Notes under the pieces: model-generated
Told to the model about the DNA's origin: nothing
The model's database searches: none
What the model saw: the letters and a program-made list of their open reading frames with translations, nothing else
Translations under genes and position numbers: made by a program
Assembly: GCA_042568285.1 (NCBI GenBank)
Contig: JBHPIX010000001.1
Span: forward strand, 539 to 64,538
Source: Patescibacteria group bacterium
GTDB taxonomy: Bacteria; Patescibacteriota; Patescibacteriia; JAZDEU01
Reading direction: 5' to 3'
DNA length: 64,000 nt
Shown here: in pieces, positions 16,998 through 34,040 of the stretch
How positions within the stretch are numbered: position 1 is the first letter of the stretch
How the letters are laid out: each line of letters opens with the position of its first letter

Positions 16998-18680
<1,683 letters not shown>

Positions 18681-18683
18681 CCT

Positions 18684-18746: not shown

Positions 18747-18803
18747 CTGTGATATTATAAAAAAGAGAGGATTTTTCCTCTCTTTTTTGTTTAGCGTGAT
18801 GGT

Positions 18804-19058
18804 TTATTTTTTCTCAACTACAATAGTGCATTTTGTGAGCAGGGCAGCCAATGCTCCGACTGCGGCTAAAACTGGAGCGACAAGCGCTCCAACAGCGCCA
18901 ATTGTCAAAGGCACTTCAAGCATTGTTTCTCCTTTTTCGTTTTTAATGCTAATTTTTCTCGCGCTTCCTTCCTTGATTAGCTCTTTGACTTTTTTTACAA
19001 TTTCATCTCCTGAAACTTTAAACTCTTCTTTTTTTGTTGTTTTAGTTTTTTTAGTCAT
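18804..19058 (-). CDS. DUF4342-like small protein
   Basis: EVKGSEIVEKVKELIKEGxxRRIxIKxExGxTxLEIPLTIG..LAPVLAAVGA pattern recalled for DUF4342. Confidence 0.45.
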   Translation of the reverse strand: MTKKTKTTKKEEFKVSGDEIVKKVKELIKEGSARKISIKNEKGETMLEVPLTIGAVGALVAPVLAAVGALAALLTKCTIVVEKK

Positions 19059-19082
19059 ATTTTGTTTATCAAAAGTTACAAT

Positions 19083-19125
19083 AGTTCTCCCCTTCCCAGA
19101 GGGGGAGATAAAGAGGGGGTGTTAT
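19083..19125. repeat. GC-rich hairpin element (reverse orientation) upstream of DUF4342 gene
   Basis: ctccccttcccagagggggagataaagagggggtgtta. Confidence 0.55.
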
Positions 19126-19268
19126 AGTTATTACAATTTATTTATTATTATCTTCTTTAATGCCCATAATTATTACATAGCTAAAAAGCGCTAAAAATAA
19201 TATTGCAAGTATAATTATCATCATATATGTTTAGTATAAGACTTTAGAGTTTTATTGTCAAAGTTTTT

Positions 19269-19574
19269 TTACTTTACAAACTCTATTTTAAGATTGCGAT
19301 TAAGCGCGGAAGCGATTTTTTGGACGGTTGCGATTGTAAAATTTTGTTCACCGGCTTCCATCCTTGCTATATTGCTTTGTTTTGCGCCGATTTTTTTCGC
19401 AAGATCTGATTGGGATATTCCAGCCTGTTTCCGCAGTTGCAAAATTTTATAAGAAATCTCTAACTGCTTTGCATATTCATCATAATATTTTTTTATTTTC
19501 GGATCCTTTAATTGCTCGGATAGGTATTCCTGAAAATCTATAATTTTTTTTTGGTTTTTGTATAGTTTATTCAT
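19269..19574 (-). CDS. higA: XRE-family HTH antitoxin (HigA-like)
   Basis: HTH_3 motif ISQSDLAKKIGAKQSNIARME; 8-nt overlap with upstream toxin gene. Confidence 0.65.
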   Translation of the reverse strand: MNKLYKNQKKIIDFQEYLSEQLKDPKIKKYYDEYAKQLEISYKILQLRKQAGISQSDLAKKIGAKQSNIARMEAGEQNFTIATVQKIASALNRNLKIEFVK

Positions 19575-19905
19575 ATATATCTTTTTTATTTATAACATCG
19601 TAATAATTTTGTTCTGCTTTTTTAATTTCGGAAAGAGGAGTTTTAGAGGTGTTTTTTAAAAAAGCGTGGAGCAGGATAATATTTTTACCAATAAAGGTAA
19701 AGTAAAAAATTCTATGTCTATTTTTAGAAAAATCAAACGGTTCATCAAGAACACCTTTGTTTATTCGCAAAAAATCAATATATTTTAAAATCTTAGCCTT
19801 TTCTTTATCACGCAAGTTTTCAATATAGTCTAATACTGGGCTATTATAATTCTTTGTGTCTTTATAAAATTTTACTTTATAAGTTACATTGTTATTATAT
19901 ACCAT
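19567..19905 (-). CDS. higB: RelE/ParE-superfamily toxin, HigB / Gp49-like
   Basis: C-terminal IFYFTFIGKNIILLHAFLKNTSKTPLSEIKKAEQNY typical of Gp49/HigB family. Confidence 0.6.
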   Translation of the reverse strand: MVYNNNVTYKVKFYKDTKNYNSPVLDYIENLRDKEKAKILKYIDFLRINKGVLDEPFDFSKNRHRIFYFTFIGKNIILLHAFLKNTSKTPLSEIKKAEQNYYDVINKKDIYE

Positions 19906-19948
19906 ATATGATATATGTCAATAGGGTGATAAAACATGTTGTTCTATA

Positions 19949-20383
19949 TTAACTAAAATTAAATATCCTTTTCCCAATAAACTTTTCTATATACTCTACA
20001 ACCTCTTTTTTAGCTTCAGGCGGGCTGGCCGCTACCCATCGAGCAACATTATAAAGTTCAGTCGTATTAGTTTTTAACCATTTTTTATTTAGAGCTAAAA
20101 AAATTAATAGGGTAGTGACAGCTATTCTTTTATTTCCATTTTGAAATGGATGATTTTTTATTAAAAGATAAAAAAGGATGGCTACTTTGCCACTTAATCC
20201 TTTATATAAAAATTGCTTATTGAATTTTTGAAAAGGAGTTGCAATGCAACTTTCAAGTATGTTTGGCTGTCTAGTATTAAATTCAGGAATAGGCTCATCC
20301 CAACTCATAGTCTGGACAGCAAGTTGATGAGCAATATATTTGATGTGTTCAATTGTTATGTTATTTATTTTATTCATCTCCAA
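19949..20383 (-). CDS. doc: Doc-family toxin (Fic/Doc fold)
   Basis: HPFQNGNKRIAVT matches the Doc variant of the Fic motif HxFx(D/N)GNKR. Confidence 0.75.
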   Translation of the reverse strand: MEMNKINNITIEHIKYIAHQLAVQTMSWDEPIPEFNTRQPNILESCIATPFQKFNKQFLYKGLSGKVAILFYLLIKNHPFQNGNKRIAVTTLLIFLALNKKWLKTNTTELYNVARWVAASPPEAKKEVVEYIEKFIGKRIFNFS

Positions 20384-20666
20384 GCATTTTTAATGTGTCG
20401 CCATATTCTTCAATAACTTTGGCAACACCTTTTTTTATTTCTCCTTTAATTTTGTCAGTCAATTCATTATTCACAAGACCTTTTAACTCATCTCTGTGTA
20501 TGATATAAGCGCGTCCAACTTTTTCAGCCTTAATTTGGCCGTTTTGGATTTTTTTAAACACGGCAATACGGCTGATATTTAAAATATCAGCTAATTCTTT
20601 TACGGTATAATATTTTTTTTTAACGCCAGTATTAGGATTGTTAGCCATATATTTATAGGTTAACAT
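20370..20666 (-). CDS. HTH_17 / excisionase-type DNA-binding protein, putative antitoxin partner of Doc
   Basis: TVKELADILNISRIAVFKKIQNGQIKAEKVGRAYII; 14-nt overlap with doc; likely start at MANNPN. Confidence 0.5.
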   Translation of the reverse strand: MLTYKYMANNPNTGVKKKYYTVKELADILNISRIAVFKKIQNGQIKAEKVGRAYIIHRDELKGLVNNELTDKIKGEIKKGVAKVIEEYGDTLKMLGDE

Positions 20667-20697
20667 ATGTTAATTAAAAAGTCAATAATTAACATAA

Positions 20698-20728
20698 AAA
20701 TCCCGCTATTTTAGCGGGATTTTTATGA
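20698..20728. terminator. bidirectional terminator (aaaaatcccgctattttagcgggattttt)
   Basis: 7-bp stem with flanking A/T runs. Confidence 0.55.
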
Positions 20729-20910
20729 ATTTGGGGTCGGGTAGTGGATAGTATTAGAACTATATTGCAGAAACAAAGTAAATATATCTATATTCCTAAT
20801 TTGGTTTAAAATAAAATTTTACCCCACGCTACTACTCACTATATTAAAGTTTATAAAATTTAATCAATTTGGTCTAAATAAATAAACAAAAAAGGCAGAT
20901 TAAAAAATTT

Positions 20911-21939
20911 TTAATTAAAGCTATCAACAATACCGTCATCATCACCATAAAAACAAGACGGAGTATAATCGTGCCAACACCATTGCCAAGAAGTTCCATA
21001 ACCATAATTTGAAGGATTAGACGAATTTGGCACGCCTCTCCTATATTTCAACATATCAAGTGACATACCAATCCATATTTTATTATTCGCCAATCTTTCG
21101 CAATCATTTTTCCCCCATTCTGGATGTGCCTTGCAGATTTTTCCTGCTTTAGATTGTTCCCACGCTTTTTGTTCAGCCAATTCTTTCGCTTTTCTTTCTT
21201 CTTCCGCTTTTTTTTGTGCCTCAAGTATAGCCTGTTTTTTCTTTTCTGCTTCTGCTTTTTGTATCTCCATTTCTTTTTTTTGTTGTTCTTGTTGCTTTTC
21301 GCGCTCAACTAATTCTTCTTCTGTAAATATCCGATTAACCGTTATTGTTGCCTTAGACTCTTTTTCCCCATTTTTCGCAGAGAAAACAAAATTATTCTGT
21401 TCATTAAATAATTCTAATAGATATTCAAAATCGCCATCTATTGTCGCAATGGTTATGCCGTTAAAAATTATTTGTGATTTTTTAGGGCTAACTTTTCCTT
21501 TAATTGTAATACTTTCTGCTTGTATAGAAAAATTATTTTCGGGTTCAATAATCGTTATTTTAGGAGCGCGTGTAATATAATTTTTAATTCCAACGACAAC
21601 AACGAAAAAAACGATAATAACACCTATACTAATCAACTTTTTTTGTCTATTTAATTTTGTTTTTTTCCAAACAAGCCAAATTAAAAGGAGAGGCAAGGTA
21701 AAATACCAAAAAAATATGGTAGCAATAATAAAGGCAATCCACATTATAATTTTTAAATCTTTATCCCGCTTTTCTTTCTTTTCTTTATTTACAATATTGA
21801 GTGCATTTTTCCTTATATCTTCAAATTCTTGATCTGATACGACTGATTTTTTTAAATCACTCCCACAATGCTTGCATTTTATTGCTTCAATTTTTATGTC
21901 TTCAGCGCAAAACGGACATTTTTTAGTTTTATTTTCCAT
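20911..21939 (-). CDS. zinc-ribbon / TM / coiled-coil membrane protein, hypothetical
   Basis: CPFCAEDIKIEAIKCKHCG zinc ribbon, two TM helices, K/E-rich coiled coil. Confidence 0.4.
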   Translation of the reverse strand: MENKTKKCPFCAEDIKIEAIKCKHCGSDLKKSVVSDQEFEDIRKNALNIVNKEKKEKRDKDLKIIMWIAFIIATIFFWYFTLPLLLIWLVWKKTKLNRQKKLISIGVIIVFFVVVVGIKNYITRAPKITIIEPENNFSIQAESITIKGKVSPKKSQIIFNGITIATIDGDFEYLLELFNEQNNFVFSAKNGEKESKATITVNRIFTEEELVEREKQQEQQKKEMEIQKAEAEKKKQAILEAQKKAEEERKAKELAEQKAWEQSKAGKICKAHPEWGKNDCERLANNKIWIGMSLDMLKYRRGVPNSSNPSNYGYGTSWQWCWHDYTPSCFYGDDDGIVDSFN

Positions 21940-22000
21940 ATAGTTTTTTACATTTTTATTTCATAATTCACTTTTACATCGGTCGCTATTTATTGTTATA

Positions 22001-22618
22001 TTACCAACTTACACTATAATCTTTAAGAAATACCCAACCGCTGCCCCAAGAACTTGTGCCGTCAATATTATTACAATTAAAATTATCATTTTTTCTTTTT
22101 GATTTAATACCTGTATCTTCTTGTTTTGCAAATGATACAACACCTTTTACATCAATACAAACTTTTGTCCATTTTCCGTGCATTACTAAACTTTCTGTAA
22201 TATCCGTTCTGTTATCAGTTATCCCTTTGTCGTGCATTAACTTTGCTTTCTCTAATTCTATAATTCTTTTTTCTAATTCTTCTAAATAAGTATTATCGGT
22301 TTCTACTACCATTTTTTCAACTGGTTCTTTTGTGTTTGCGTTGGTTATACTTTTTAATTTTTCATCAATTATATTATTTATAATTGAAAAGTAAGGACTA
22401 AATTCAAATAAACTATTATTTTCTTTCCAGCCATATTTTTCAGCCCAATCTTTTAAATTTTTATTGTCCTCTAAATATGGATTTGGGAATGCTTTTTGTA
22501 AATCTGGTCTATTGTTCCAAACTTTAATTAGCTTATTATTAACATCAAACGCTTTTGCTGTTATAAAACTAAACAAGAATAGAACTACTACCAACGAAAT
22601 GATTTTAAATTTTTTCAT
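22001..22618 (-). CDS. secreted hypothetical protein
   Basis: N-terminal signal peptide; no known domain. Confidence 0.35.
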   Translation of the reverse strand: MKKFKIISLVVVLFLFSFITAKAFDVNNKLIKVWNNRPDLQKAFPNPYLEDNKNLKDWAEKYGWKENNSLFEFSPYFSIINNIIDEKLKSITNANTKEPVEKMVVETDNTYLEELEKRIIELEKAKLMHDKGITDNRTDITESLVMHGKWTKVCIDVKGVVSFAKQEDTGIKSKRKNDNFNCNNIDGTSSWGSGWVFLKDYSVSW

Positions 22619-22628
22619 ATTTTTTTTG

Positions 22629-22988
22629 TTATTGAATTATAACATAATTATATCCACATTTTGGACATCCTATATGTCTTGAATTAACTCTCCAAAGTGA
22701 ATAAATTATACCTACTGGAAAAAATAAAATCCAAAGAAATAATTCCATTAAAAAACTTCCTTTTGTTATTTTTTTTCCATTCCCTTCATACTTACAATTT
22801 GGACATTTTATGATTTGCATATCTTTTTTGTTAATTAAGTTAATAAATATATTATATGTTATTTTCGTATTCATATTTAACCATTCCGTAATCGTTGCCC
22901 CACTCCTGTTTTGCTCTTTCCATAATTTCTGGATATGCTGTTTGTTTGTTAATCCATTCATAATCCTCAACTTGATTTTCATATTCAT
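22629..22988 (-). CDS. small zinc-ribbon membrane protein (likely shorter, starting at MQIIKCPNCK)
   Basis: CPNCKYEG ... TM ... CPKCGYNY; track ORF overlaps the neighbouring gene 3' end. Confidence 0.3.
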   Translation of the reverse strand: MNMKIKLRIMNGLTNKQHIQKLWKEQNRSGATITEWLNMNTKITYNIFINLINKKDMQIIKCPNCKYEGNGKKITKGSFLMELFLWILFFPVGIIYSLWRVNSRHIGCPKCGYNYVIIQ

Positions 22989-23949
22989 ATTTAACCATTC
23001 CGTAATCGTTGCTCCATTCTTGTTTAGCTCTTGTCATAATCGCTGGATACGCTGTTTGTCTGTTAATCCATTCATAATCTTCAACTTGATTTTCGTATTC
23101 ATATTTAATCATTCCGTAATCATTGTCCCACTCTTGTTTTGCTTTTGTCATAATCGCTGGATATGCTGTTTGTTTAACAATCCAATCGTATGCTTCAGTC
23201 TGATTTTCTACCTCATAATTTACCATTTCGTAATCATTACCCCATTGTGCTAAAGCTTCTGCCCTAAAAATTTCTATTATCTTATCTCTGTCGCTCTTTG
23301 GTTCTATTATTGATACAGTTGGTGTAGGTTCTGGCGTTGGTGCTACTGTTGGTTGTGATGTTGGCTTTGTTGTTAGTATTGGTTTTATAATCGGTTTTGG
23401 TGTCAATACTGGAGTCGGCTCTGGTATTGGTTTTATTATTGGTGTTATTATTTTCTTTTTTGGTTCTTCAGCAACACTTTCATAAATTTGCTCTTTGTAT
23501 TTTTGAAAAATTGGAACTTTATTAAGGTCTTTATTAGTAATACCCAGTCCTTTTTCTCTCATAATCCTAAAAGCCTCATTTGGTCTGCTAAGATAATATC
23601 CTTTTAAATCTTCTGGATAAACATAATAAGCTTCTCCTTTACTTTCTACATCTAATAATATTTTACCAGCTAATCTTTCAGGAAAGGAAGAATTAAGATA
23701 TTTTTCTAATTCAATATGCTTTATTCCAAGTCCTAATTCCTGCATAATCTTAAAAGCGTCCGCAGGTCGTCCTAAATATGCCCTTTCTTGCGTGTCTGGG
23801 TCTATATACCACCCTTGCCCTTTATCTTCTACCTGTAATAAAATTTTACCTTTTAATCTACTTGATATATTTTGAGCATTAGAAAAATTGAAAGGAATTA
23901 AAAGTAAAATGAAAGTTAAAGTTGCTAACATTGTAAATTGTTTTTTCAT
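22852..23949 (-). CDS. secreted repeat protein (2 N-terminal + 4 C-terminal near-identical repeats, Pro/Thr-rich linker)
   Basis: signal peptide; four ~33-aa repeats AKQEWxNDYGMVKYEYENQVEDYEWI encoded by ~100-bp DNA tandem repeats. Confidence 0.5.
   Translation of the reverse strand: MKKQFTMLATLTFILLLIPFNFSNAQNISSRLKGKILLQVEDKGQGWYIDPDTQERAYLGRPADAFKIMQELGLGIKHIELEKYLNSSFPERLAGKILLDVESKGEAYYVYPEDLKGYYLSRPNEAFRIMREKGLGITNKDLNKVPIFQKYKEQIYESVAEEPKKKIITPIIKPIPEPTPVLTPKPIIKPILTTKPTSQPTVAPTPEPTPTVSIIEPKSDRDKIIEIFRAEALAQWGNDYEMVNYEVENQTEAYDWIVKQTAYPAIMTKAKQEWDNDYGMIKYEYENQVEDYEWINRQTAYPAIMTRAKQEWSNDYGMVKYEYENQVEDYEWINKQTAYPEIMERAKQEWGNDYGMVKYEYENNI
22860..23250. repeat. tandem ~99-bp DNA repeat x4 inside CDS
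   Basis: near-identical blocks starting ttcgtattcatatttaaccattccgtaatcgttgc. Confidence 0.8.
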
Positions 23950-24157
23950 AGTTTTTTATAATAGCTTAATTTTGGTTATTACTGGCGGAAAATATAAAGC
24001 CCGCCGCCAGCGATGGCTTACACCACCCATATTCCTTTCGGAATATGACCTGCTACAGGTGCTCTGACGACGAGCTTTCTATCCTGTAGCAGGTTTTTTT
24101 GCCATACCTCGCAGATTGACTACGAGGGTTAGGCAATTAAATTGTTAATGGTTTATG

Positions 24158-24376
24158 TTATTTTTTTTGATTTATCAATTTTAGAATATCTTCCTTTTTA
24201 TACCGCATTACTCTTTTAATTCCAATACGAATAGCTTGAAATATTCCTTTTTTATCCCATTGTCTTAAAGTGTTCGGATGGCATTTCAAAATATCACACG
24301 CCTCTTGCAGTGTGAGTAATTCTGGTATTTCTTGTTGATTTTTAGCTGTTTTTAGCATTGACTTTTTATCTAACAT
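24158..24376 (-). CDS. HTH_17 / excisionase-family DNA-binding protein
   Basis: LTLQEACDILKCHPNTLRQWDKKGIF. Confidence 0.55.
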   Translation of the reverse strand: MLDKKSMLKTAKNQQEIPELLTLQEACDILKCHPNTLRQWDKKGIFQAIRIGIKRVMRYKKEDILKLINQKK

Positions 24377-24410
24377 TTGATAACATTAGTATATAACAAA
24401 AATAAAAAAA

Positions 24411-25616
24411 TTGCAAATTAAATTACTATTACCAAAAATTACTATGACCCCAGAGGAAAAATTTAACCAAGAGGTTTGGTGGATTTTACAACGATTAAAG
24501 TATCTGGAAATCTCCTCAAAAAAGGGAGAAATCATCAATTTTATTATTGAAGCCAGACCCATTAGTCCCCCTAACGAACCATCACCAAGAGCTCAAGAAA
24601 GTGCCATTTTAAAGTTAGAGGAATGGCAAGCCATAAAAATACTTAACCAAAAAGTTAAATACGATACTTATGGAAAAGATTTTATTTATAATTTAAAAAT
24701 TTTACAACCAAAATTTGATGAGTTTTACAAAAAATATGAGGAAAAGTTAGAAAAAAATAGCCCCAAAAGAAAATTTTCCACTGAACAAGGCAATAAAACA
24801 ATTGCACAAGAAAATTTGGATTATACAGATACAGCTTCACGAAGAGCGTGGGAGAAAAAGTGGGACGCACTACAAGCAATATGGACTAACTACGAGAGTA
24901 GCAATAAACCAGATAATCTATTCATTCCTATTGAGCGATTGGCAATTAAAAATAGAACTGCCTTTGAGATAGATGGAATAATTGGCGGATTTCAAAAAGA
25001 GGGTTGTTTTAAGGATTGGCACAGAGGAACGGAGAATTATGAAATTAAAGATATAAACCATAATCAATTTGCTGAAAATTATAAAAAAACGGAACTTATT
25101 TACACTAAGTTTGCTAAAATTTATCAAGAAAGGGTTGGCGATAAAATATCTATAAACAATCAAGAAGAAAAATTAGAAAAAAGTAATAAAGAAAACTACA
25201 AAAATAATACTTTTCTACAATCAATTCATCTGATTACAACCACCTTAGAACCATCTGATGTTATATTTTTAGTGCTTGATAGAAACTTTAATATACCAAC
25301 AAGGTGTGCTGTAAAAAATTATAAAGGAACTCCTGCATATATAAAAAAATTATATGACATTGCTTATATAGCAGATGTTCCAAACAAAAAGGTTATTTAT
25401 GACAAAAAGTTGGCTGATAATATAAACAATGGATTATTTAGAAAAAGACCTATAAAGAAATTTATGAGAACAAATAAATTTAAAAAACCAACACTTGTTC
25501 AAAAATCAGAAGATAAAAAAACTTTAGTATTAAAAAATGAAATTCAGGTGGAAACAATCCTTGTAAAAAATATTCCACTCCAATATCAATATCTTTATAA
25601 AGACAAAACCAAATAG
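24411..25616 (+). CDS. hypothetical protein (401 aa), mobile-element cargo
   Basis: no recognisable motif; followed by terminator. Confidence 0.4.
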   Translation: MQIKLLLPKITMTPEEKFNQEVWWILQRLKYLEISSKKGEIINFIIEARPISPPNEPSPRAQESAILKLEEWQAIKILNQKVKYDTYGKDFIYNLKILQPKFDEFYKKYEEKLEKNSPKRKFSTEQGNKTIAQENLDYTDTASRRAWEKKWDALQAIWTNYESSNKPDNLFIPIERLAIKNRTAFEIDGIIGGFQKEGCFKDWHRGTENYEIKDINHNQFAENYKKTELIYTKFAKIYQERVGDKISINNQEEKLEKSNKENYKNNTFLQSIHLITTTLEPSDVIFLVLDRNFNIPTRCAVKNYKGTPAYIKKLYDIAYIADVPNKKVIYDKKLADNINNGLFRKRPIKKFMRTNKFKKPTLVQKSEDKKTLVLKNEIQVETILVKNIPLQYQYLYKDKTK

Positions 25617-25656
25617 TATACGAATACTATCAGTGCAATAAAATAGTCTTATACTA

Positions 25657-25685
25657 AAACCCGCTTATCTAAGCGGGTTTTTTAT
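25657..25685 (+). terminator. rho-independent terminator (aaacccgcttatctaagcgggttttttat)
   Basis: 7-bp stem + T-run. Confidence 0.65.
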
Positions 25686-25710
25686 TTATTCTCCGTCTGG
25701 TCAGTGAGAT

Positions 25711-26016
25711 ATGATAATTGTAAAAGTAAAACAATTAACCAAACAAAATTATATGAGCAAAAAATTACAAAACAATTTAGAAGACAATGGAGTGTTCGCT
25801 AATTATGATTTAGGCTGTGCCGCCGCTTTAGTAACGGCGAATTTTGTGTTGCTCACTTTAGACAGGGAAAACCCACGCAAAGTGAGATTTATTTTTCGCC
25901 GTGAGGCGGGAATTGAAAAGGTCGCAGATGACTTTTGGTCTGATCGTCTTGAGCAAAAGTCCCGTTCGTTTTGGGATAACATTAAAAATCTCAAGAACAG
26001 ATTATATTCGGACTAA
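25711..26016 (+). CDS. hypothetical small protein
   Basis: ORF only; overlaps alternative-frame ORF 25901-26224. Confidence 0.25.
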   Translation: MIIVKVKQLTKQNYMSKKLQNNLEDNGVFANYDLGCAAALVTANFVLLTLDRENPRKVRFIFRREAGIEKVADDFWSDRLEQKSRSFWDNIKNLKNRLYSD

Positions 26017-26224
26017 TAAATTTATGTTGTCGGACGAGCAAATTACAAAATTTCAGACGCTTTATAAAAACCGCTTTGGCAAAGAAATTAGCCGAGAGGA
26101 AGCGTATAAACAGGGTGCGAAACTCATCCGACTTGTTGAGTTGATTTATAAACCAATAACAGAACACGAGTATCAAAAATTACAGGAACGCCGTCAAAAA
26201 ACAGGCGAACTAAACATTAACTAA
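25901..26224 (+). CDS. hypothetical small protein
   Basis: ORF only. Confidence 0.25.
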   Translation: MRRELKRSQMTFGLIVLSKSPVRFGITLKISRTDYIRTNKFMLSDEQITKFQTLYKNRFGKEISREEAYKQGAKLIRLVELIYKPITEHEYQKLQERRQKTGELNIN

Positions 26225-26239
26225 ATTAACATTAAAATT

Positions 26240-28375
26240 ATGCAAGAATTACAAACCATTACAATTAAAGAATATCTTACACGCAAAGGTATTGCCTTTA
26301 GTGAAAGCGGAAAAGAACTTATAACTCACTGCCTATTTAACGGCTGTGATGAAGATAGCCGAAACAATGAAGCTCACCTGTATTTTCAGGCGGAAACAGG
26401 TCAATATAATTGCAAAAAATGCGGAGAAACTGGCAATATAATAACGCTCGCAAGACATTTAGGTGATGATATTAAGGATGTTGCGATTGATAGTTTTTCG
26501 GCACATAAAAAAGGGGCAATAAATCAACTAAAAGCCACTTATATTAACCCTGATATAGTCGCAAAGTGCCATAAAGAACTCCCAGAGCGTATCAGACGAT
26601 ATTTAAACAAAAGAGGGCTTACAGACGATTTTATAAGCGAATTTAAGCTTGGATATGGACAGTTTTATAAAAAATCGTGGATTACAATCCCTATTACAGA
26701 TATTGACGGCAATGTTTTGTTTTTTAAACTAAGGCAAGATCCTGATGACAAAGATAATCCTCATAAGCTTAAAGCTTATCCATCGGGAAGCAAGGCGACT
26801 ATTTACGGATTAGAGATGTTAAAAAATAATGAGGACATGATAATGATTTGCGAGGGCGAATTTGATAGATTGATTTTGTTAAAAAATGGAATACCTGCCA
26901 TTACTTCTACGGCTGGAGCTGGAACTTTTAAAGAGGGCTGGCTGGAAAATTTAAGCAAGCTTGAAAAAATATATATTTGTTTTGATAAAGATGAGGCGGG
27001 AGAGAAAGGGGCGGAAAAAGTAATAAAGGTAATGGCGGGAAAATTGCCAGAGGTTGCTATATATAAAACTACTCTTCCTGAACGAATGAATGAAGGCAAA
27101 GATATAACGGATTATTTTATAAAATATAACGGTACACCAGATGAATTAATCTATAAACTTTCAAAGCAGGTGGCTGGCAAAAAGCCCATTGATGTTTCAA
27201 AATTTACACCGCTTAAACTTGATGATATTATAAAGATATTAGGGCTTACAATAAAAAAAGATGAAGAAAATAAAATCGTAACTTTTTTATGTGAATTATC
27301 CGCTTATACGGAAAGCTCTCAGTTTAATATTAGTTTCAATGCTCCCTCATCAACTGGTAAAAGTTATATACCAACAGAAATAGCTCAATTATTCCCCGAA
27401 AAAGATGTTAAAGAAATAGGTTATTGTTCTCCAACCGCCTTTTTTCACGATGTAGGGGCATTTAACAAAGAACGGGAAGGGTATGAGATAGATTTATCAA
27501 GGAAAATATTGATATTTTTAGATCAACCGCATACAATGCTTTTAGAGAGATTAAGACCTTTGCTTTCTCACGATAAAAAGGAAATGCACCTAAAAATTAC
27601 AGACAAATCTCAAAAATCAGGTTTGAGGACAAAAAATGTTTTTATAAAAGGTTATCCATCGGTTATTTTTTGCAGTGCGGGTCTAAAGATTGATGAACAG
27701 GAAAGCACAAGATTTTTATTGCTTTCTCCCCAAACCGACAAAGAAAAAATTAGGGAGTCAATAATAGAGAGAATAAAAAAGGAATCAGACAATAGTAGTT
27801 ATTCGCAATGGTTAAATAGCGACTCAAGCAGAATAATGTTAAAAGAAAGAATTGAAGCGATAAAAAAAGAAAAGATAGAGCATATTAAAATTAAGAATCC
27901 GAAAATTATTGAAGAAAAATTTTTTAAAGGCAGAGATATTCTTAAACCAAGACATCAGCGAGATGTTGGCAGGCTAATATCTTTAATAAAGTCCATTGCT
28001 TTGCTTAATCTCTGGTTTAGGGAGCGAGAGGATAACATCATTATTGCTAATGAGGAAGACATAAGCGAAGCCGTAAAATTATGGGATAAAATCTCTGAAA
28101 GCCAAGAGTATAATTTGCCCCCATATATTTATCAACTTTATCAAGAAGTGATTATAACCGCATGGCAGGATCTAAATAATGGGAAAAATGGGATAAAAAT
28201 TGGGGTAAGTAGAAAGGATATAATGAAAAAACATTTTAAAGTATATGGGCGTATGATTCAAGATTGGCAATTAAGGCAACAAATTATTCCAATGCTGGAA
28301 ACCGCGGGGCTTATAACTGAAGAGAGGGATTCACAAGACAAAAGAAAAACATTAATTTACCCCACCACCCTTTAA
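26240..28375 (+). CDS. mobile-element primase / replication protein: zinc-finger + Toprim + P-loop (SF3-like) C-terminal domain
   Basis: CxxC...CKKCG zinc ribbon, Toprim ICEGEFD...CFDKDEAGEKGA acidic motifs, NAPSSTGKSY Walker A. Confidence 0.65.
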   Translation: MQELQTITIKEYLTRKGIAFSESGKELITHCLFNGCDEDSRNNEAHLYFQAETGQYNCKKCGETGNIITLARHLGDDIKDVAIDSFSAHKKGAINQLKATYINPDIVAKCHKELPERIRRYLNKRGLTDDFISEFKLGYGQFYKKSWITIPITDIDGNVLFFKLRQDPDDKDNPHKLKAYPSGSKATIYGLEMLKNNEDMIMICEGEFDRLILLKNGIPAITSTAGAGTFKEGWLENLSKLEKIYICFDKDEAGEKGAEKVIKVMAGKLPEVAIYKTTLPERMNEGKDITDYFIKYNGTPDELIYKLSKQVAGKKPIDVSKFTPLKLDDIIKILGLTIKKDEENKIVTFLCELSAYTESSQFNISFNAPSSTGKSYIPTEIAQLFPEKDVKEIGYCSPTAFFHDVGAFNKEREGYEIDLSRKILIFLDQPHTMLLERLRPLLSHDKKEMHLKITDKSQKSGLRTKNVFIKGYPSVIFCSAGLKIDEQESTRFLLLSPQTDKEKIRESIIERIKKESDNSSYSQWLNSDSSRIMLKERIEAIKKEKIEHIKIKNPKIIEEKFFKGRDILKPRHQRDVGRLISLIKSIALLNLWFREREDNIIIANEEDISEAVKLWDKISESQEYNLPPYIYQLYQEVIITAWQDLNNGKNGIKIGVSRKDIMKKHFKVYGRMIQDWQLRQQIIPMLETAGLITEERDSQDKRKTLIYPTTL

Positions 28376-28573
28376 CTCACTATATTATAAATAGTGAGTG
28401 ATACTGGGGGGATGTGGGAATAAAATACTAAATTTATGATTGGGAAATACTGGAAAAACAGGAAGATTAAAAATGTCGTTTTAAAATGATATTTTTGGCT
28501 AAAATTAGCTAAAATATAGTAATTAAATACAAAATTTAGAAAGCTTAATCTCTAATTATTTCGGTAAAATTAT

Positions 28574-29170
28574 ATGAGCAAAATAATAAAAGAAAATTGC
28601 AAGGAATTAAGTATTTATAGGTTAAAAGAATGGGGTTATTTTGAGGCTGGCTGGCGTAAAAACGGGGGAATTACTTGGACAAGCCCGAATGGAGATAAAA
28701 GTAATATTAGTTTTGTAGTAGATTTGGGAGAACAAAATGATATGTTTATAGAGGTAGATTATAGGGTAAAAAATTGGGGAGAGGATGAATGGACTAATAT
28801 AAAACAGAAATATCCGATCGTTGCGACTACTTGCAATTATGGAGGCGTAAGATATTGGTTTGAATGTTCAATTTATCATAATGGTGTTTATTGCGGACGG
28901 AGAGTGGCTAAATTGTATTTGGGAGCAGGAAGCAAGTATTTTGCTTGCAGGCATTGCTATGGTTTAACTTATCGTTCCCGATTAGAAGGATTTGCTTATA
29001 CTGCTCCCTATTTAGACGAATACGCTGAGAAAACAAAAAGGTGGTATTATAACGGGAAGCCAACCAGACGGCATAGGCAGTATATAAAGAAAGAAAATAG
29101 TATGATGAGATATTGGGCAAGGTTTTTATTTAAGGCAAATGAAAGAATGGACGGGAGAATAAATAAATAA
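28574..29170 (+). CDS. hypothetical protein (198 aa, Cys/His-containing)
   Basis: ORF only. Confidence 0.3.
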   Translation: MSKIIKENCKELSIYRLKEWGYFEAGWRKNGGITWTSPNGDKSNISFVVDLGEQNDMFIEVDYRVKNWGEDEWTNIKQKYPIVATTCNYGGVRYWFECSIYHNGVYCGRRVAKLYLGAGSKYFACRHCYGLTYRSRLEGFAYTAPYLDEYAEKTKRWYYNGKPTRRHRQYIKKENSMMRYWARFLFKANERMDGRINK

Positions 29171-29239
29171 ATTAAATAAAATAAAATAAAATGAGGTGAA
29201 TGAGTTGGCTAAATGAATTTTATGGTGTATAATATAAAT

Positions 29240-29340
29240 GTTGACCCACACATAAACTAATAACCGAAGGTTTTTGTTTTGTCGCCCCAAATGGGCGGTT
29301 CTGCCGATAAATACTACCTTCGGGAAAGTGTGTTGGGTCA
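29240..29340. promoter_or_regulatory. 100-bp imperfect palindrome (gttgacccacaca ... tgtgttgggtcaac with nested ccgaaggt...accttcgg) directly upstream of the serine recombinase; candidate att / operator site
   Basis: read directly; large serine recombinase att sites are typically int-adjacent imperfect palindromes. Confidence 0.35.
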
Positions 29341-29384
29341 ACCAGAACCGTCCTTTTGAGTTTTTATACAACTCTAACAATATG

Positions 29385-31031
29385 AGACAAAATGACAATA
29401 AAATTAAATACTTCCTTTATGCTCGCAAATCTTCTGAAAGCGAAGACAGACAAATTCAATCTATCAAAGACCAAATTGATCGTTTAAATGATTTGGCGAA
29501 AGATTTGGATTTGGAAATAATAAAAACTTTTACAGAAGCGAAATCGGCTAAACAGCCAAACAATAGACCTATCTTTGACGATATGTTAAGCAGAATTGAA
29601 AAAGGAGATGCTGATGGGATATTGTGCTGGCAAATCAACCGCTTATCAAGAAATCCTGTTGATAGCGGTAAAATAAACTGGTTACTACAACAAGGAACTA
29701 TTAAAGCAATACAAACCATTGATAAACAATATCTCCCAGAAGATAATGTTTTGATGTTTAGCGTGGAAAGCGGAATGGCAAATCAGTTTATTTTGGATTT
29801 AAGAAAAAATACTATAAGAGGCTTGGAGAGCAAAATTCAAAAAGGTTGGTTTCCAAGCAGAGCTCCACAAGGTTATATAAATGATGTGATAGATAAAATT
29901 ATTATCAAAGACCCAGAAAGATTTAATTTAGTAAGAAAAATGTGGGATTTGATGTTGACTGGGAGTTATCAACCGCCCAAAATATTGGACATAGTTACTG
30001 ATGAATGGGGATATTTAACAAGGAAAACAAAAAGAGGCGGAGGCAAACCAATGTCAAAAAGTGAAATTTACAGAATATTTAATGACCCGTTTTATTATGG
30101 CTGTTTTAAATATAAAGACAAAATTTATAAAGGCAAGCATAATCCAATGATAACAGTTGATGAATATGAGAGGGTGCAGGAACTTTTAGGCAGAAAGGAT
30201 AAGCCAAAACAAAAGACCCACGAATTTGCTTTTACTGGGATTATTAGGTGCGGTAATTGCGGATGTTTAGTTACTGCCGAAGAAAAGAAAAAATTTATTA
30301 AAAGCACAAAAGAATATGCGACTTATACTTATTATCGTTGCACCAGAAGAAAAAGGGAAGTTAAATGCAAAGAGCCGACAATAAATTTAGATAATTTGCA
30401 AAATCAGATTATTAATGAAATTGATAAATATACTATTCCCCCAGAGTTTAGGGATTGGGCATTAGAGGTAATAAAAGGAAATAATGAAAAGGAAATAGAA
30501 ACTCGCAATCAAGCTTATGAAATGCTTAATAAAAAATATTTGGATTTACAAAAACAGTTAGATAATTTAACCAAATTGAGATTAAGAGATTTGATTAGTG
30601 ATGAGGAGTTTGTCAAAGAAAGAAAAGAATTGCAAAATCAAGTTATTAAAGTTAGAGAAAAATTAAATCAAAATCAAGATAGAGGGCAAAATTGGGTTGA
30701 TTTAATTGAAAGGGCTTTTAATTTTGCGACTTTGGCAAGAGAGAAATTTATAAACGGCGATTTACAGACTAAAAGAGAAATATTATCGGCATTAGGGCAA
30801 ACTTACACATTAAAGGGAGGTAAATTATACATTGAACCAATAGAATGGTTAGCTCCCATTTCTAACCTTGCTAAAATTGAACAAGATGAGGTTGTGAGGT
30901 TAGAACCAGCTAATTTTCGCTTAAATAAAGCAAAAAACAGGGCTTTAAACCCTGTAATTGCGAATTGGGGTGATAGATGGGATTTGAACCCACGACTTCC
31001 AGTACCACAAACTGGCGCTCTAACCAACTGA
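29385..31031 (+). CDS. large serine recombinase (resolvase/invertase catalytic domain + recombinase domain + zinc ribbon + coiled coil)
   Basis: YFLYARKSS catalytic Ser context, ...RLSRN, CGNCGC...CTRRK zinc ribbon; ORF has no stop until 31031, so the last ~22 codons are antisense to tRNA-His. Confidence 0.8.
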   Translation, partial: RQNDNKIKYFLYARKSSESEDRQIQSIKDQIDRLNDLAKDLDLEIIKTFTEAKSAKQPNNRPIFDDMLSRIEKGDADGILCWQINRLSRNPVDSGKINWLLQQGTIKAIQTIDKQYLPEDNVLMFSVESGMANQFILDLRKNTIRGLESKIQKGWFPSRAPQGYINDVIDKIIIKDPERFNLVRKMWDLMLTGSYQPPKILDIVTDEWGYLTRKTKRGGGKPMSKSEIYRIFNDPFYYGCFKYKDKIYKGKHNPMITVDEYERVQELLGRKDKPKQKTHEFAFTGIIRCGNCGCLVTAEEKKKFIKSTKEYATYTYYRCTRRKREVKCKEPTINLDNLQNQIINEIDKYTIPPEFRDWALEVIKGNNEKEIETRNQAYEMLNKKYLDLQKQLDNLTKLRLRDLISDEEFVKERKELQNQVIKVREKLNQNQDRGQNWVDLIERAFNFATLAREKFINGDLQTKREILSALGQTYTLKGGKLYIEPIEWLAPISNLAKIEQDEVVRLEPANFRLNKAKNRALNPVIANWGDRWDLNPRLPVPQTGALTN

Positions 31032-31043
31032 GCTACTATCACC
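30966..31043 (-). tRNA. tRNA-His (GTG) with extra 5' G and encoded CCA
   Basis: cloverleaf read by eye: GGTGATAG acceptor, anticodon loop TTGTGGT, T-arm GTGGGTTCAAATCCCAT. Confidence 0.8.
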
Positions 31044-31070
31044 ATAATTTAATTTTAGATTGTAAATAGT

Positions 31071-31141
31071 GTCTCCGGAGGGAATCGAACCCCCATAACC
31101 AGCTTAGAAGGCTGGTGTTCTATCCGTTGAACTACGGAGAC
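31071..31141 (-). tRNA. tRNA-Arg (TCT)
   Basis: GTCTCCG acceptor, anticodon loop CTTCTAA, T-arm GGGGGTTCGATTCCCTC. Confidence 0.8.
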
Positions 31142-31159
31142 ATATTATATAATAAATTT

Positions 31160-31323
31160 TATGGAATCGCCCGCTAATACAGCGGGCGCTCGCCGTGGTG
31201 GCGAGCGAACCCCCATAACCAGCTTAGAAGGTTTGCCTCTCCGTAGCTTTAGCGTAGGCGGGTTGGTGTTCTATCCTCCTTCGCTAAAGCTACGGCGGAC
31301 AAAGTCCGTTGAACTACGAGCGC
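31160..31323 (-). pseudogene. degenerate tRNA-Arg(TCT)-like sequence with three insertions (D-loop, anticodon stem, T-loop); 3' acceptor strand missing
   Basis: blocks GTAGTTCAACGGA, GGATAGAACACCA, CCTTCTAAGCTGGTTATGGGGGTTCG align to tRNA-Arg; inserts at 31236-31266 and 31281-31308 are mutually complementary over 14 nt. Confidence 0.45.
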
Positions 31324-31376
31324 ATTTTATAACTGTATATAAAACTTATCAGAAAAGATTGTGATTGTCAATTTAA

Positions 31377-34040
31377 TTAACTTCTCAACTTCTTTTCAGC
31401 CTCTTCAAATTTAATACTTAACAACCTTGAAATGCCGTCATCTCCCATTGAAACTCCGTATAATAATTTTGCTTTTTGCATAGTTGCCCTGTTATGAGTT
31501 ATAACAATAAATTGAGATTTATTGGATAATTCACCAATTATTTTAGCGAGATTATGTGAATTTGCTTCATCAAGAGCCGCGTCTACTTCATCCAAAACAA
31601 TAAATGGGGAAGGGTTATTTGAAATAATAGCGCAAAGTAGCGCGATCGCGGTAAGCGCTCTTTCACCTCCTGATAGCATATTTATACTGTTGATTTTTTT
31701 TCCAGGAGGCGCTGCTTGTATTTCAATGCCAAATACAACTTTTTGTTTGTAAATTTTTAATGGATTTTTTTCTTTTACATCATTATTTTCTGCGATTATA
31801 TTTTCTTCTGATTCTGATGTTTGTTGGTTTTCTTCAGTTTCTTTTTCATCTTCCGCAATTTTTATTAAATTAGATTTGCCACCACCGAATAGAAGACTAA
31901 AATATTTTTGAAATTCTTTATTTATGGCATTAAATGATTTTTCAAATTTATTTTTAATAGTTAAATCAAGTTCTTTAATAATTTTTTCAAGGGAAGTAAT
32001 CGCTTTGCTTAAGTCTGTTGTTTGTTCTGATAAAAAAGTAAACCTTTCTTTTGTCTCTGTATATTCAGTTTTTGTTTCAGGATCAATTCCTCCAATAAAT
32101 TCTAATTGTTCCTTTATTTTTTTAATTTGCGGAAGCAGGTTTTCAGGGTGTTCTATAAATTCAAAATTTTCGCTTGTAAGGTGAATTTCATCTTGTTTTA
32201 TTTCATACATTAAATCCTCTTTTTTTGTTGTGATTTTTGCCAGCTCAATTCTAATTGTATTAGTTTCTTCAGACAGCTTATTAAATTTCATTTGATGCTC
32301 CTGATATTGTTTTTGCAGTTCAAACAAGTTTTCTTTTTTTATTTCTTCTTTTATATTAAATTCGTTTATTGCATTTTTTAATTTATTGATTTTTTTGTCT
32401 AATTCTGAAATTTGATTTTCTATTTTTTGATTTTTCGCTTCTAATTCTTTTAATTTTTGTTGTTCATTAACTGGTTTTTCTTTAGCTTCGGAAATTTCAC
32501 GAAATAAATTTTTTTCTTCCGTTTCCATTTTTTGCAATGATTCTTTGAGAGTTTTCTCCCTTTCTTTTTTACCATTAATTTCTATTAGCAGTTTATTAAA
32601 CGAAGCAATAATGTTTTCTCTTTCTTGAATGGCGATTTTAACATTATCTTTGGCGATTAGAATTTTTTGGGCGTTTTGGTCATCTTTTGGGCATAATTCT
32701 TTTAGTATTTCGTTTAAATTTTTGTCTATTTGCTTCGCTTCTTTTATTATATTATTTAACTCTTCTATATCTTTGGCTGATTCTAATTTTTTTACTAAAT
32801 TTTGATAAGAATAATATATCAAAGAGATGCTTTTTTCTAATTCTTTATCGTTTATCTTTTTTACATTATTATTCGCCTGCAAGTTATCAAGGCATTCTTG
32901 CGCCTTTTGTTCATCTTTCGTCGCTTTTTCTTTTTTTTCGCTAATTTTTTTAATGTTTCTATCTAACCTTGAGATTATATCAGAAATTGATGATATGGAA
33001 TCTTCTATTTTTTCTTTTTCTTTTTTAATCTCGTCATATTTTTTTTCCAGCCAAATTAAATTTACTTTTCCAATTTTTTTATACTCTATTTCTTTATTTC
33101 CTTTTATAACAGCTTGTTGTCTTAATAGTAGATTTTTTTCATCAATTAAGATGTCATATTTATTTCTAAGAATATTAAATGCCTCTGATCGTGTTTCTTC
33201 CTCTTTTTGTTTTTGTATGGCTGTTTCTATTGCATGCAATTCTTTCTTTAACTCATTTTCTTGTTTAATTAGTATATCTAAGTCAGTTTGAACGGTTTCT
33301 TGATGAGAGTTTAATTGTTTTTTTATAGTTCCGTAATAATTTAGTTGTAATTTTCTTAGATTAGAAGTTAAGCTTTCTCGTTTTTCTAATTTTTTCATTT
33401 GCCTTGTAAGAGATTTTAGGCGAGGGTCAATTTCTTTAAGCAGAAGATCTGTTTGCGATAAATTATCATGAGCATTAATTAGTTTATTTAATGATTGATT
33501 TCTTTTAATTTGATATTCTTTAACTCCTGCGGCTTCATCAAAAAATTCTTTTCTTTCATTCGGAGGCGCAATGAGAAAATAGTCTATCATTCCTTGACCG
33601 ATAACGCTGTAAGTCCTTTGCCCAATTTGAGCTTTTGCTAAAAGCATTTGGATGTCTAACAGTCTAACTTTATTTTTATTAATTAAATATTCGCTTTCTC
33701 CATTTCTGTATAGTCGTCTTGTTAAAACAAGCTCAGAATAATCAATTGGCGCTTTGCCGCTTTCATTATTCAAATACAAAGAAACTTCGGCAAATCCAAG
33801 CCGAGTTTTTTTATCAGATCCAGCAAAAATAACATCTTCGCTTTTTTTCCCGCGTAGAGTTTTTAAGCTTTGTTCCCCGAGAACCCATCTTATTGCGTCT
33901 GCAATATTAGATTTGCCACTCCCATTAGGACCGACAATGGCTGTAATAGTATGCTCATCAGCTTTTTCTTTTGGGAATTGCAGGACAGTTTTTTCAGCAA
34001 ATGATTTGAATCCTTTTATTTCTATTTTCTGTAAATACAT
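31377..34040 (-). CDS. smc: SMC-family chromosome segregation ATPase (887 aa)
   Basis: N-terminal Walker A GPNGSGKSN, C-terminal signature LSGGERALTAIALL and Walker B FIVLDEVDAALD, long coiled coils. Confidence 0.85.
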   Translation of the reverse strand: MYLQKIEIKGFKSFAEKTVLQFPKEKADEHTITAIVGPNGSGKSNIADAIRWVLGEQSLKTLRGKKSEDVIFAGSDKKTRLGFAEVSLYLNNESGKAPIDYSELVLTRRLYRNGESEYLINKNKVRLLDIQMLLAKAQIGQRTYSVIGQGMIDYFLIAPPNERKEFFDEAAGVKEYQIKRNQSLNKLINAHDNLSQTDLLLKEIDPRLKSLTRQMKKLEKRESLTSNLRKLQLNYYGTIKKQLNSHQETVQTDLDILIKQENELKKELHAIETAIQKQKEEETRSEAFNILRNKYDILIDEKNLLLRQQAVIKGNKEIEYKKIGKVNLIWLEKKYDEIKKEKEKIEDSISSISDIISRLDRNIKKISEKKEKATKDEQKAQECLDNLQANNNVKKINDKELEKSISLIYYSYQNLVKKLESAKDIEELNNIIKEAKQIDKNLNEILKELCPKDDQNAQKILIAKDNVKIAIQERENIIASFNKLLIEINGKKEREKTLKESLQKMETEEKNLFREISEAKEKPVNEQQKLKELEAKNQKIENQISELDKKINKLKNAINEFNIKEEIKKENLFELQKQYQEHQMKFNKLSEETNTIRIELAKITTKKEDLMYEIKQDEIHLTSENFEFIEHPENLLPQIKKIKEQLEFIGGIDPETKTEYTETKERFTFLSEQTTDLSKAITSLEKIIKELDLTIKNKFEKSFNAINKEFQKYFSLLFGGGKSNLIKIAEDEKETEENQQTSESEENIIAENNDVKEKNPLKIYKQKVVFGIEIQAAPPGKKINSINMLSGGERALTAIALLCAIISNNPSPFIVLDEVDAALDEANSHNLAKIIGELSNKSQFIVITHNRATMQKAKLLYGVSMGDDGISRLLSIKFEEAEKKLRS

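Follow-up and report, generated by a model that had tools for sequence, protein, structure and literature searches.

A probable integrative element at the 3' end of tRNA-His in a Patescibacteria genome, with a serine recombinase gene that appears to span attP

Why should the gene of a large serine recombinase run, without meeting a stop codon, into the antisense strand of an intact tRNA gene? This question is raised by a locus in a 64,000-nt stretch of AT-rich DNA (~32% GC) from a genome of the Patescibacteria (candidate phyla radiation, CPR), hereafter the window. To our knowledge, this group has tiny genomes and few recognised mobile elements. A preliminary description of the window had placed an integrated mobile element with a large serine recombinase at tRNA-His, spanning some 12 kb (19200-31043), and had read the run-on recombinase frame as an int gene spanning attP. 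The analyses reported here make it very likely that positions 20732-30971 are an integrated, non-viral and probably self-replicating element of a CPR family, in which the recombinase gene spans attP.

Borders of the element and the empty site

Transfer RNAs of the window were called with ARAGORN and Rfam, and both programs identified tRNA-His(gtg) (30966-31042, reverse strand) and tRNA-Arg(tct) (31069-31141, reverse strand), with Rfam scores of 69.2 and 71.6 bits. The tRNA-His target gene (30966..31043, reverse strand) is intact, with an encoded G-1 and an encoded CCA, and the codon TGG at 30966-30968 is the antisense of that CCA. The open reading frame (ORF) of the recombinase (29274..31031, forward strand) enters this gene from the tRNA 3' end and covers 66 nt of it in antisense before reaching its first stop at 31029-31031, in line with the ~65 nt of stopless overlap reported in the preliminary description. 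Since the homologues begin at the ATG at 29379, the integrated form of the protein comprises 550 aa (29379..31031, forward strand), and its final 20 codons (30972-31031) are host tRNA antisense.

The protein has the domains of a large serine recombinase. Its resolvase-type catalytic domain matches PF00239 (E=2.1e-18), the Y-x-R-x-S serine motif is present as an invariant YARKS among 28 aligned homologues, and residues 203-448 match the C-terminal domain of the A118 integrase (PDB 4kis) in a phmmer search. A recombinase domain (PF07508, Recombinase) and, behind it, a zinc-ribbon domain with a coiled-coil insertion (PF13408, Zn_ribbon_recom) are indicated by these Pfam matches, by the A118 match and by helices 357-402 and 408-459 of an AlphaFold2 model (28 sequences), which is confident to about residue 506 and has a pLDDT (predicted local distance difference test) below 50 over 503-550. 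Past the A118-matching part, the recombinase carries an extra C-terminal stretch of ~100 aa. It is at most 28% identical to anything in PLSDB or INPHARED, and its NCBIfam matches to XisF and Ccr lie far below the cutoff.

A protein search returned more than 4000 relatives of this recombinase, of which the best 120 (55-79% identical, almost all from CPR sources) were used for comparison. Among their C-termini are WGGYRELNPR, RWRRGWDSNPR, WLPGLDSNQD and similar endings, in which the antisense strand of a tRNA acceptor and T arm is translated (GGATTCGAACC, for instance, encodes D-S-N-P). In a simple classification, about 80 of the 120 tails run into the T arm and 27 stop 1-4 codons past a conserved Trp. 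About six homologues have mutually similar tails that do not come from a tRNA, with the motif W-(G/L)-x-(V/L)-x-D-x-(F/V)-R-T. Used as tblastn queries, native homologue tails matched the window at 20732-20788 (forward strand) and, in several other integrated loci, positions kilobases upstream of the recombinase. In the window, the match is part of a displaced recombinase 3' end (20732..20809, forward strand), also detected by a hidden Markov model (HMM) of the native tail (E=4e-12). It reads TGG GGT CGG GTA GTG GAT AGT ATT AGA ACT ... TAA and encodes WGRVVDSIRTILQKQSKYIYIPNLV before the stop. This segment opens with TGGGGT, as at 30966-30971, contains TGGAT at 20745-20749, and supplies, in frame and with its own stop, the final 24 codons of the recombinase after the shared W codon. 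The recombinase ORF is hence split between opposite ends of the element, which bears out the earlier reading of the run-on frame as an int gene that spans attP.

The displaced tail recurs in related loci. In GTDB, taken at one genome per species, 349 relatives of the recombinase were found, and 80 of these loci were retrieved, with 10 kb of flank each for the attL search. Run over six frames of the 80 loci and the window (81 sequences), the tail HMM gave 20 matches with E<0.01 in 19 sequences, all of them on the recombinase strand and 3.5-11.2 kb upstream of the recombinase end, and none on the opposite strand or downstream of the recombinase. A pattern search for 'FRT' in the forward frames was too narrow, missing attL sites that tblastn and the HMM found. 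As in the window, a terminator hairpin stands to the left of the displaced tail in many other loci. For the 17 elements with both ends known, lengths range over 3.5-11.2 kb around a median of 9.2 kb. One locus (L016) contains two displaced-tail motifs upstream of a single recombinase; the outer one (443) pairs with attR, and the inner one (1221), with a shortened tail, may be a relic of an earlier or nested insertion.

Comparison with a relative lacking the island, a check that the preliminary description had proposed, located the borders. A contig from the Joint Genome Institute (L082), which carries the closest relative of the SMC gene (79% identity), has in order SMC, a split tRNA-Arg-like sequence, tRNA-Arg(tct), tRNA-His(gtg), a terminator and a SocA_Panacea toxin-antitoxin (TA) module. 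With 20732-30965 removed, the window is colinear with this contig from the SMC stop through both tRNAs, and the alignment extends ~60 nt into terminator and promoter-like sequence (20731 to ~20655) at ~90% identity; beyond ~20655 the two carry unlike TA genes. From this empty-site alignment, the insertion point is the 3' end of tRNA-His, and 19269-20666, with both TA modules of the window, belongs to the host side. A terminator scan of the window identified a 16-pair stem with a T-run at 20693..20727 (reverse strand). It is homologous to the terminator directly behind tRNA-His in L082 and is read as the original intrinsic terminator of the tRNA-Arg/tRNA-His unit. This terminator, on the host side, forms the B arm of attL and now lies 10.2 kb from tRNA-His. 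The element thus occupies ~20732-30971 (10.2 kb) and is inserted exactly at the 3' end of tRNA-His, so that the extent of about 12 kb given earlier has to be revised, with attL at 20732. Base composition, another of the proposed checks together with codon usage, was uninformative: GC content is 0.318 in the element and 0.323 in the window, and GC and skew fail to delimit the element.

Serine integrases act on short attP and attB sites that cross over at 2 bp and have no extended identity to each other. The left border had been described as having no obvious direct repeat, as would fit a serine recombinase. Likewise, when the tRNA-His region was compared with the entire window by short-word BLAST, no direct repeat of at least 11 nt appeared at 20732 or at the ~19200 border. 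The two attachment sites share only the core TTGGGGT (attL 20731..20737 and attR 30965..30971, forward strand). On its left side the element ends inside the attL core or immediately to the right of it; on its right side it ends inside the attR core, which in antisense reads A71-C72-C73-C74-C75-A76 of tRNA-His and one further base. A 17-nt match to the tRNA-His region at 11772 was dismissed as chance, and a repeat scan of 18000-32000 gave AT-rich chance pairs and a cargo repeat only, with no border repeats. The junctions expected from these borders are 30971 joined to 20738 for attP (GCGAATTGGGGTCGGGTAGTGG) and 20731 joined to 30972 for attB (TATGAATTTGGGGTGATAGATGG).

Across 15 attL/attR pairs, identity comprises TGG and 0-4 nt rightward and is at chance level leftward, and the B arms of these pairs are host terminators. 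Several attL sites retain a non-CCA host tRNA end where attR has TGG: TTGCTCC against TGGCTCC in L015, TTGCTG against TGGCTG in L016, CGGCACGG against TGGCACGG in L070, and TGGGT against TGGGGT in L006 and L081. These host ends suggest that positions 1-2 of attR (A76 and C75, counting the T of TGG as 1) derive from the element, and we infer that the crossover falls at some point within positions 3-6 (C74, N73, N72, N71). An encoded CCA is found in 68 of 72 target tRNAs, compared with 32 of 120 other tRNAs in the same loci. The element hence appears to donate an encoded CCA, or at least C75-A76, to the tRNA that it targets. Many non-target tRNAs (L002-L081) end in N73-CAA or N73-CAT, an odd near-CCA pattern for CPR genomes.

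Transfer RNA ends as targets of the recombinase family

The association with tRNA genes extends across the family. In 68 of the 80 loci, the 3' end of a minus-strand tRNA called by ARAGORN meets the recombinase 3' end at TGG, and in a further one (L046) a tRNA overlaps the recombinase with no TGG at its 3' end. In these loci the target is most often tRNA-His (31), followed by Gln (10), Asn (9), Ser (7) and Trp (5), with Met, Ile and Glu (2 each) and Asp (1) as rarer targets. The nearest recombinase neighbour shares the target tRNA in 53 of 69 cases, against a mean of 17 and a maximum of 31 after shuffling, which indicates that target choice is inherited within the family. Switches of target, such as Gln to Asn and His to Gln, are seen between recombinases that are 80-85% identical. 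One chromosome (OZ246416.1, 886 kb) harbours two elements of the family (L005 and L023), one at tRNA-His and one at tRNA-Asn. Judged by its recombinases, the family appears almost restricted to the Patescibacteria. The literature searched, the coverage of which is incomplete, yielded no account of the present CPR family or of any serine integrase with an ORF extending over attP at the CCA end of a tRNA; a large survey of large serine recombinases nowhere mentions tRNA (PMC10083194).

The sequences flanking the core suggest how such targets could be recognised. When consensus sequences are aligned at TGG, the B' arm (68 loci) and the P' arm (16 loci) both present GGA at positions 15-17, and GGA(T) at 15-18 is common to the two. 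The T-loop motif TT(C/T)GAAC occupies positions 18-24 of B' (consensus TTCGAAC), and TTAGAAC is found at 23-29 in P'. In the window, GGAT and the T-loop motif are at 30980-30983 and 30982-30989 (ATTTGAAC) in the B' arm formed by tRNA-His, and at 20746-20749 and 20753-20760 (ATTAGAAC) in the P' arm formed by the displaced tail. According to the rule proposed from the structure of the A118/LI integrase with attP, the motif of the zinc-ribbon domain lies 5 bp nearer the centre in attB than in attP, with ranges of 16-24 in attP and 11-19 in attB for the LI integrase (PMC3783163). For the present family, a crossover near 5-6 would give approximate motif ranges of bp 17-25 for P' and 12-20 for B'. 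It is therefore likely that the P' arm mimics the tRNA T-loop and that the zinc-ribbon domain recognises this motif. GTTCG at -12..-8 in the P arm was considered as a mirror motif; its spacing is of the attB type, not the attP type. The native tail (...VDxVRT...YIYIPDL) may have a function of its own, for instance in directionality, or its conservation may reflect, partly or wholly, a constraint on the P' arm at the DNA level. The stretch exchanged upon integration amounts to ~24 native codons against 20 tRNA-encoded ones and, according to the structural model, is probably an unstructured tail, so that the integrated form of the recombinase should still be active for excision.

Insertion parts the tRNA from its own terminator. 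In the window, a hairpin ACAGGGTTTAAAGCCCTGT followed by TTTTTGCTTT was identified by terminator scan at 30927..30955 (reverse strand; hairpin 30955-30937). It lies 10 nt past the CCA on the tRNA strand, antisense within the last recombinase codons. A hairpin and T-run no more than 25 nt from the CCA are present in 43 of 68 loci, compared with 26 of 1620 control positions taken from these genes and this strand. When 66 sequences are aligned without gaps, 73.8% of the cells in the seven hairpin pairs are paired, as opposed to 55.2% in shuffled sets, none of which (0/500) reached the observed value. The covariation score is 0.529, against 0.10-0.21 for slid partners, with double changes in every pair. 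Pairing is also higher on the tRNA strand (73.8%, with 15% G.U) than on the recombinase-sense strand (62.1%, with 3.7% G.U). Given the separation of the tRNA from its original terminator, this conserved hairpin is best read as a putative, element-borne intrinsic terminator that replaces it for the tRNA transcript. Such a terminator would also explain the conserved recombinase peptide 'NKAKTEALASVRARW', which corresponds to an A-run and a palindrome.

Gene content and neighbouring sequences

Protein families were assigned with Pfam and PHROGs, and conservation was counted by tblastn of the window proteins against the 80 retrieved loci. All the gene types named in the preliminary description (TA, HTH, Zn-ribbon, repeat protein, primase and recombinase) were recovered in this way. 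The element is laid out as a divergent gene for an excisionase-type helix-turn-helix (HTH) protein, followed by genes for a DUF5659 protein, a 66-aa protein, a primase, a 198-aa protein and the recombinase. The HTH_17/MerR protein (24158..24376, reverse strand; 72 aa; PF12728, E=1.8e-11; phrog_66 and phrog_2907) is found in 17 loci and is a candidate regulator or directionality factor. The remaining genes lie on the forward strand. A protein of 390-401 aa without family assignment (24444..25616), which may be core or variable, has its N-terminal ~110 aa kept in seven loci. The DUF5659 protein (25711..26016; PF18903) is found in 49 of the 80 loci, and the 66-aa protein (26024..26224), which belongs to no family and is a gene call in L001, in 59. 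The primase (26240..28375; 711 aa) is a Zn-finger/Toprim enzyme of the DnaG type with a C-terminal P-loop domain (Toprim_2; PHROG DNA primase and primase/helicase). It contains the Walker A motif 'APSSTGKS', and copies 58-68% identical are present in 33 loci; in L083 the primase is split over two ORFs. The 198-aa Cys-rich protein (28574..29170), also without family, is found in 31 loci. The HTH_17, 66-aa, DUF5659 and 198-aa proteins are all candidates, and only candidates, for a directionality factor.

The four genes between attL and the HTH gene (20911-23949), all on the reverse strand, have almost no relatives in other elements and are hence regarded as variable cargo. They encode a Zn-ribbon membrane protein of 342 aa (20911..21939; Zn_ribbon_3, below cutoff, and Glucodextran_B) that is not conserved in other elements, a 205-aa protein with a signal peptide and no match in Pfam or PHROGs (22001..22618), a small Zn-ribbon membrane protein with one relative, in L007 (22629..22988), and a secreted protein with a signal peptide and three C-terminal repeats of 38 aa (22852..23949; direct repeats, 3 x 114 nt). 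The true start of the small Zn-ribbon protein is probably an internal ATG near 22820. No capsid, terminase, portal, packaging or Zot-type families were detected in the Pfam and PHROGs scans of the element proteins, and the 2.9 million contigs of IMG/VR yielded one distant relative of the recombinase, at 36% identity. The lack of virion families and the near-absence from viral and plasmid collections point to an integrative, probably self-replicating, non-viral element.

Both TA modules of the window consist of adjacent toxin and antitoxin genes of named Pfam families, as expected of type II systems. One comprises an HTH_3 antitoxin (19269-19574; PF01381) and a Gp49/HigB-like toxin (19567-19905; PF05973), and the other a Fic/Doc toxin (19949-20383; PF02661) and an HTH_17 antitoxin (20370-20666; PF12728). 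The modules named in the preliminary description are thus real, but they (19269-20666) lie outside the element to which it had assigned them, on the host side of attL and beyond the original terminator and the conserved promoter region. Against the 80 loci, their four genes gave three weak HTH_17 matches beside other recombinase genes and one Doc match beyond attR (L044), and no TA gene was found inside the bounds of any related element among these loci. The terminator and a promoter-like sequence, TTGACT...TAACATA, are kept beside tRNA-His in the two genomes (window 20655-20731; L082 13047-13115). The site looks like a hotspot that exchanges TA cassettes behind a fixed promoter, with HTH_17-Doc and HigBA-like modules here and SocA_Panacea in L082.

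The interval from SMC to tRNA-Arg(tct) contains a further tRNA-Arg-like sequence (window 31161-31335, reverse strand; L082 12712-12870), segments of which match tRNA-Arg exactly (31086-31111 equals 31206-31231, plus two shorter blocks). It is broken by hairpin-forming inserts of ~17-32 nt. Two of these inserts were mapped in the window, and visual inspection of L082, where the sequence is kept with base changes, showed another in the T arm. The tRNA-Arg-like sequence is called by neither ARAGORN nor Rfam, and could be an intron- or insert-bearing tRNA or a tRNA-derived RNA. On the left side of the locus, a GC-rich hairpin with ATAAAG(A)GGGGGTGT behind it occurs twice (18700-18745 and 19088-19125), once on either side of a small DUF4342 gene (18804-19058, reverse strand) in AT-rich surroundings. 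Rfam returned no family for these hairpins near 18700 and 19100.

Competing explanations, proposed mechanism and known systems

Several observations weigh against an integrated element whose recombinase gene spans attP. The exact attP and attB junctions had zero matches in metagenome contigs, where neither a circle nor an empty site of the same strain was found, and the empty site comes from a relative, L082, whose SMC is only 79% identical and whose tRNA-His has diverged. The attL tail is seen in just 19 of the 81 loci, within the 10-kb flank; the four-base crossover window is drawn from a handful of loci, and the att pair of L042 does not fit unless it has decayed. Neither the P arm nor the B arm shows a clear mirror motif, and the 5-bp shift concerns the right half-sites only. 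In addition, two recombinases with native tails sit on large contigs with no adjoining tRNA (L083, 176 kb, at 10001-11680; L085, at 203-1870) and are not explicable as free circles. A tandem insertion was rejected for both, as no second copy is present there. These two recombinases are followed by defence-type genes (HEPN, SocA_Panacea and type III restriction-modification; PDDEXK and an OLD-like Toprim). Finally, a 13.9-kb contig of another assembly (L001, JBHPIQ010000009.1) is 100% identical to window 23550-30381 and then runs 22229->16619 reversed, an inversion-type junction within the recombinase gene, in which 30381 is joined to 22229 with a 6-nt microhomology (CGACAA) and the recombinase is shortened to 335 aa. 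The junction may represent a genuine inversion variant or else a chimera that arose in assembly or amplification; a recombinase-mediated origin was set aside, CGACAA being unrelated to the att cores.

Of the other ways to explain the locus, the one with most to recommend it, though still unlikely, is a fixed and immobile remnant, that is, an ancient, vertically inherited insertion with a decaying or domesticated recombinase. The failure to find a free form or a same-strain empty site among metagenome contigs would agree with it, as would signs of decay elsewhere in the family, such as the split primase of L083, the out-of-frame attL tails of L006 and L081 and the shortened tail of L016. In the window, however, the core ORFs are full length and the displaced tail is in frame with its own stop, L082 lacks the insertion, and targets have switched among recombinases 80-85% identical. 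A somewhat smaller chance attaches to a prophage or phage satellite, akin to phage-inducible chromosomal islands (PICIs) or inoviruses, whose small secreted and membrane proteins would be virion parts or serve to hijack a helper phage. A size of 3.5-11 kb, an int-xis-primase module and small membrane proteins are reminiscent of satellites and inoviruses, and the closest functional analogues, the tycheposons, include PICI-like forms (10.1101/2020.12.28.424599). Against this stand the lack of capsid, terminase, portal or Zot/pI-type ATPase in the Pfam and PHROGs scans, the single IMG/VR relative, the ceiling of 28% identity to anything in INPHARED, and membrane-protein cargo that is not conserved between elements.

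A single 12-kb element (19200-31043), with both TA modules mobile and a vague left border near 19200, is more improbable still. TA modules are typical cargo of mobile elements, those of the window adjoin the element and have a low GC of 0.294, and they are not at the matching place in L082, which has SocA_Panacea. Yet the displaced tail and shared core at 20732 lie to the right of both modules, and the 60 nt between the TA module and 20732 are host sequence, kept beside tRNA-His in L082; the tail HMM detected no second attL-type motif further left in the window, and no related element encloses a TA gene. Least credible of all is an accidental read-through, in which the ORF simply meets no stop before a GC-rich tRNA with few antisense stops and attP lies elsewhere. 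Most serine-integrase elements do have attP outside the int ORF, homologues differ in the length of their tRNA-encoded extension (1 to >40 codons), which is what stops met by chance would produce, and the final ~48 residues are predicted to be unstructured. Chance does not account, however, for a junction at the same Trp codon (CCA antisense) in ~68 loci and nine different tRNAs, nor for a conserved continuation of the ORF at the other element end that opens with the same core.

An integrated element with its attP inside the recombinase gene suggests the following mechanism. In the free form, the ORF would run past the conserved Trp TGG into ~24 further codons (W-x-x-V-V-D-x-V-R-T...Y-I-Y-I-P-D-L); with this native tail the recombinase would have 554 aa. 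Target recognition would rely on a P' arm that imitates the tRNA, with the T-loop motif shifted 5 bp outward, and integration would proceed by crossover inside a four-base interval (C74/N73/N72/N71) at the very end of the tRNA gene. This would leave the native tail at attL (20732-20809) and fuse the recombinase ORF to antisense tRNA-His until a chance stop. The tRNA would stay intact, its final bases, at least C75-A76 of the CCA, being provided by the element; its own terminator would be moved to attL, and the element terminator, antisense in the 3' codons of the recombinase, would substitute for it. Directly documented are the borders, the empty site, the split ORF, the association with tRNA genes across the family and the conserved hairpin with its T-run; the exact crossover point, transcription termination at the hairpin, recognition of the T-loop motif by the zinc-ribbon domain, present mobility and the way of transfer between cells are deductions. 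A broader and quite tentative proposal is that CPR-wide serine integrases read a generic tRNA 3' architecture, consisting of the acceptor end and the T-loop at a fixed distance, with attP as a tRNA mimic carrying a 5-bp insertion over the C-terminal codons, and that the element repairs its target with CCA and terminator. On the same proposal, the exchange of tails might act as a marker or switch of the integration state that biases direction, and the family would be naturally retargetable.

With hundreds of species-level occurrences, the family would provide a major channel for gene flow in the CPR and a convenient marker in the search for cargo. The features described here would amount to a serine-integrase answer to tRNA targeting, combining little identity between sites, T-loop mimicry, an ORF over attP and compensation for CCA and terminator, and a natural tRNA-end specificity with examples of retargeting would offer a set for studying and redesigning att recognition in genome engineering. 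For annotation, database recombinases with C-termini such as '...WGGYRELNPR' carry tRNA antisense and not protein sequence, and these elements will escape island finders that are keyed on displaced tRNA fragments.

Integration into tRNA genes is classically the work of tyrosine integrases, and a displaced piece of the tRNA is left behind in the process. SSV-type integrases are tyrosine recombinases of archaeal viruses and plasmids, with an attP that lies inside the int ORF and is identical to the tRNA over a long stretch; when they integrate into a tRNA gene, the two parts of the int gene come to lie at opposite element ends and a large part of the protein is lost. The element family resembles them in that the ORF contains attP and would be split upon integration, as seen in the window and 18 other loci. 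It differs in having a bacterial serine recombinase, an exchange of ~24 terminal codons and a shared core of 6-7 bp. In the tycheposons of Prochlorococcus, 910 of 937 recombinases are tyrosine recombinases, and partial tRNA copies of ~40 nt flank the element (10.1101/2020.12.28.424599). Tycheposons and Islander-type islands are alike in being small and tRNA-associated, with an integrase, an excisionase-like HTH protein, a primase/helicase and variable cargo (10.1101/2020.12.28.424599); here, in contrast, there is no tRNA fragment repeat, the element is inserted at the very 3' terminus and its host belongs to another phylum. The tyrosine integrase and displaced tRNA fragment repeat that define Islander-type islands are replaced in the window by a serine recombinase and a 7-nt core.

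Serine integrases catalyse unidirectional integration, and excision requires a directionality factor. With A118/LI, TP901-1, phi105, Bxb1, phiC31, CcrAB and XisF, the recombinase of the window shares domain order, the YxRxS motif and a long coiled coil, as well as short att sites with very little identity between attL and attR. It resembles the LI integrase model (PMC3783163) in the P' motif displaced 5 bp outward, on the right half-sites only. It differs from these systems in its identity of at most 28% to recombinases of phage and plasmid collections, its additional ~100 aa at the C-terminus, its targeting of tRNA 3' ends (nine types), an ORF that extends over attP, and the CCA and putative terminator that the element carries. 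By its predicted domains and att logic it would hence be a serine integrase, and one that by sequence is remote from the characterised members.

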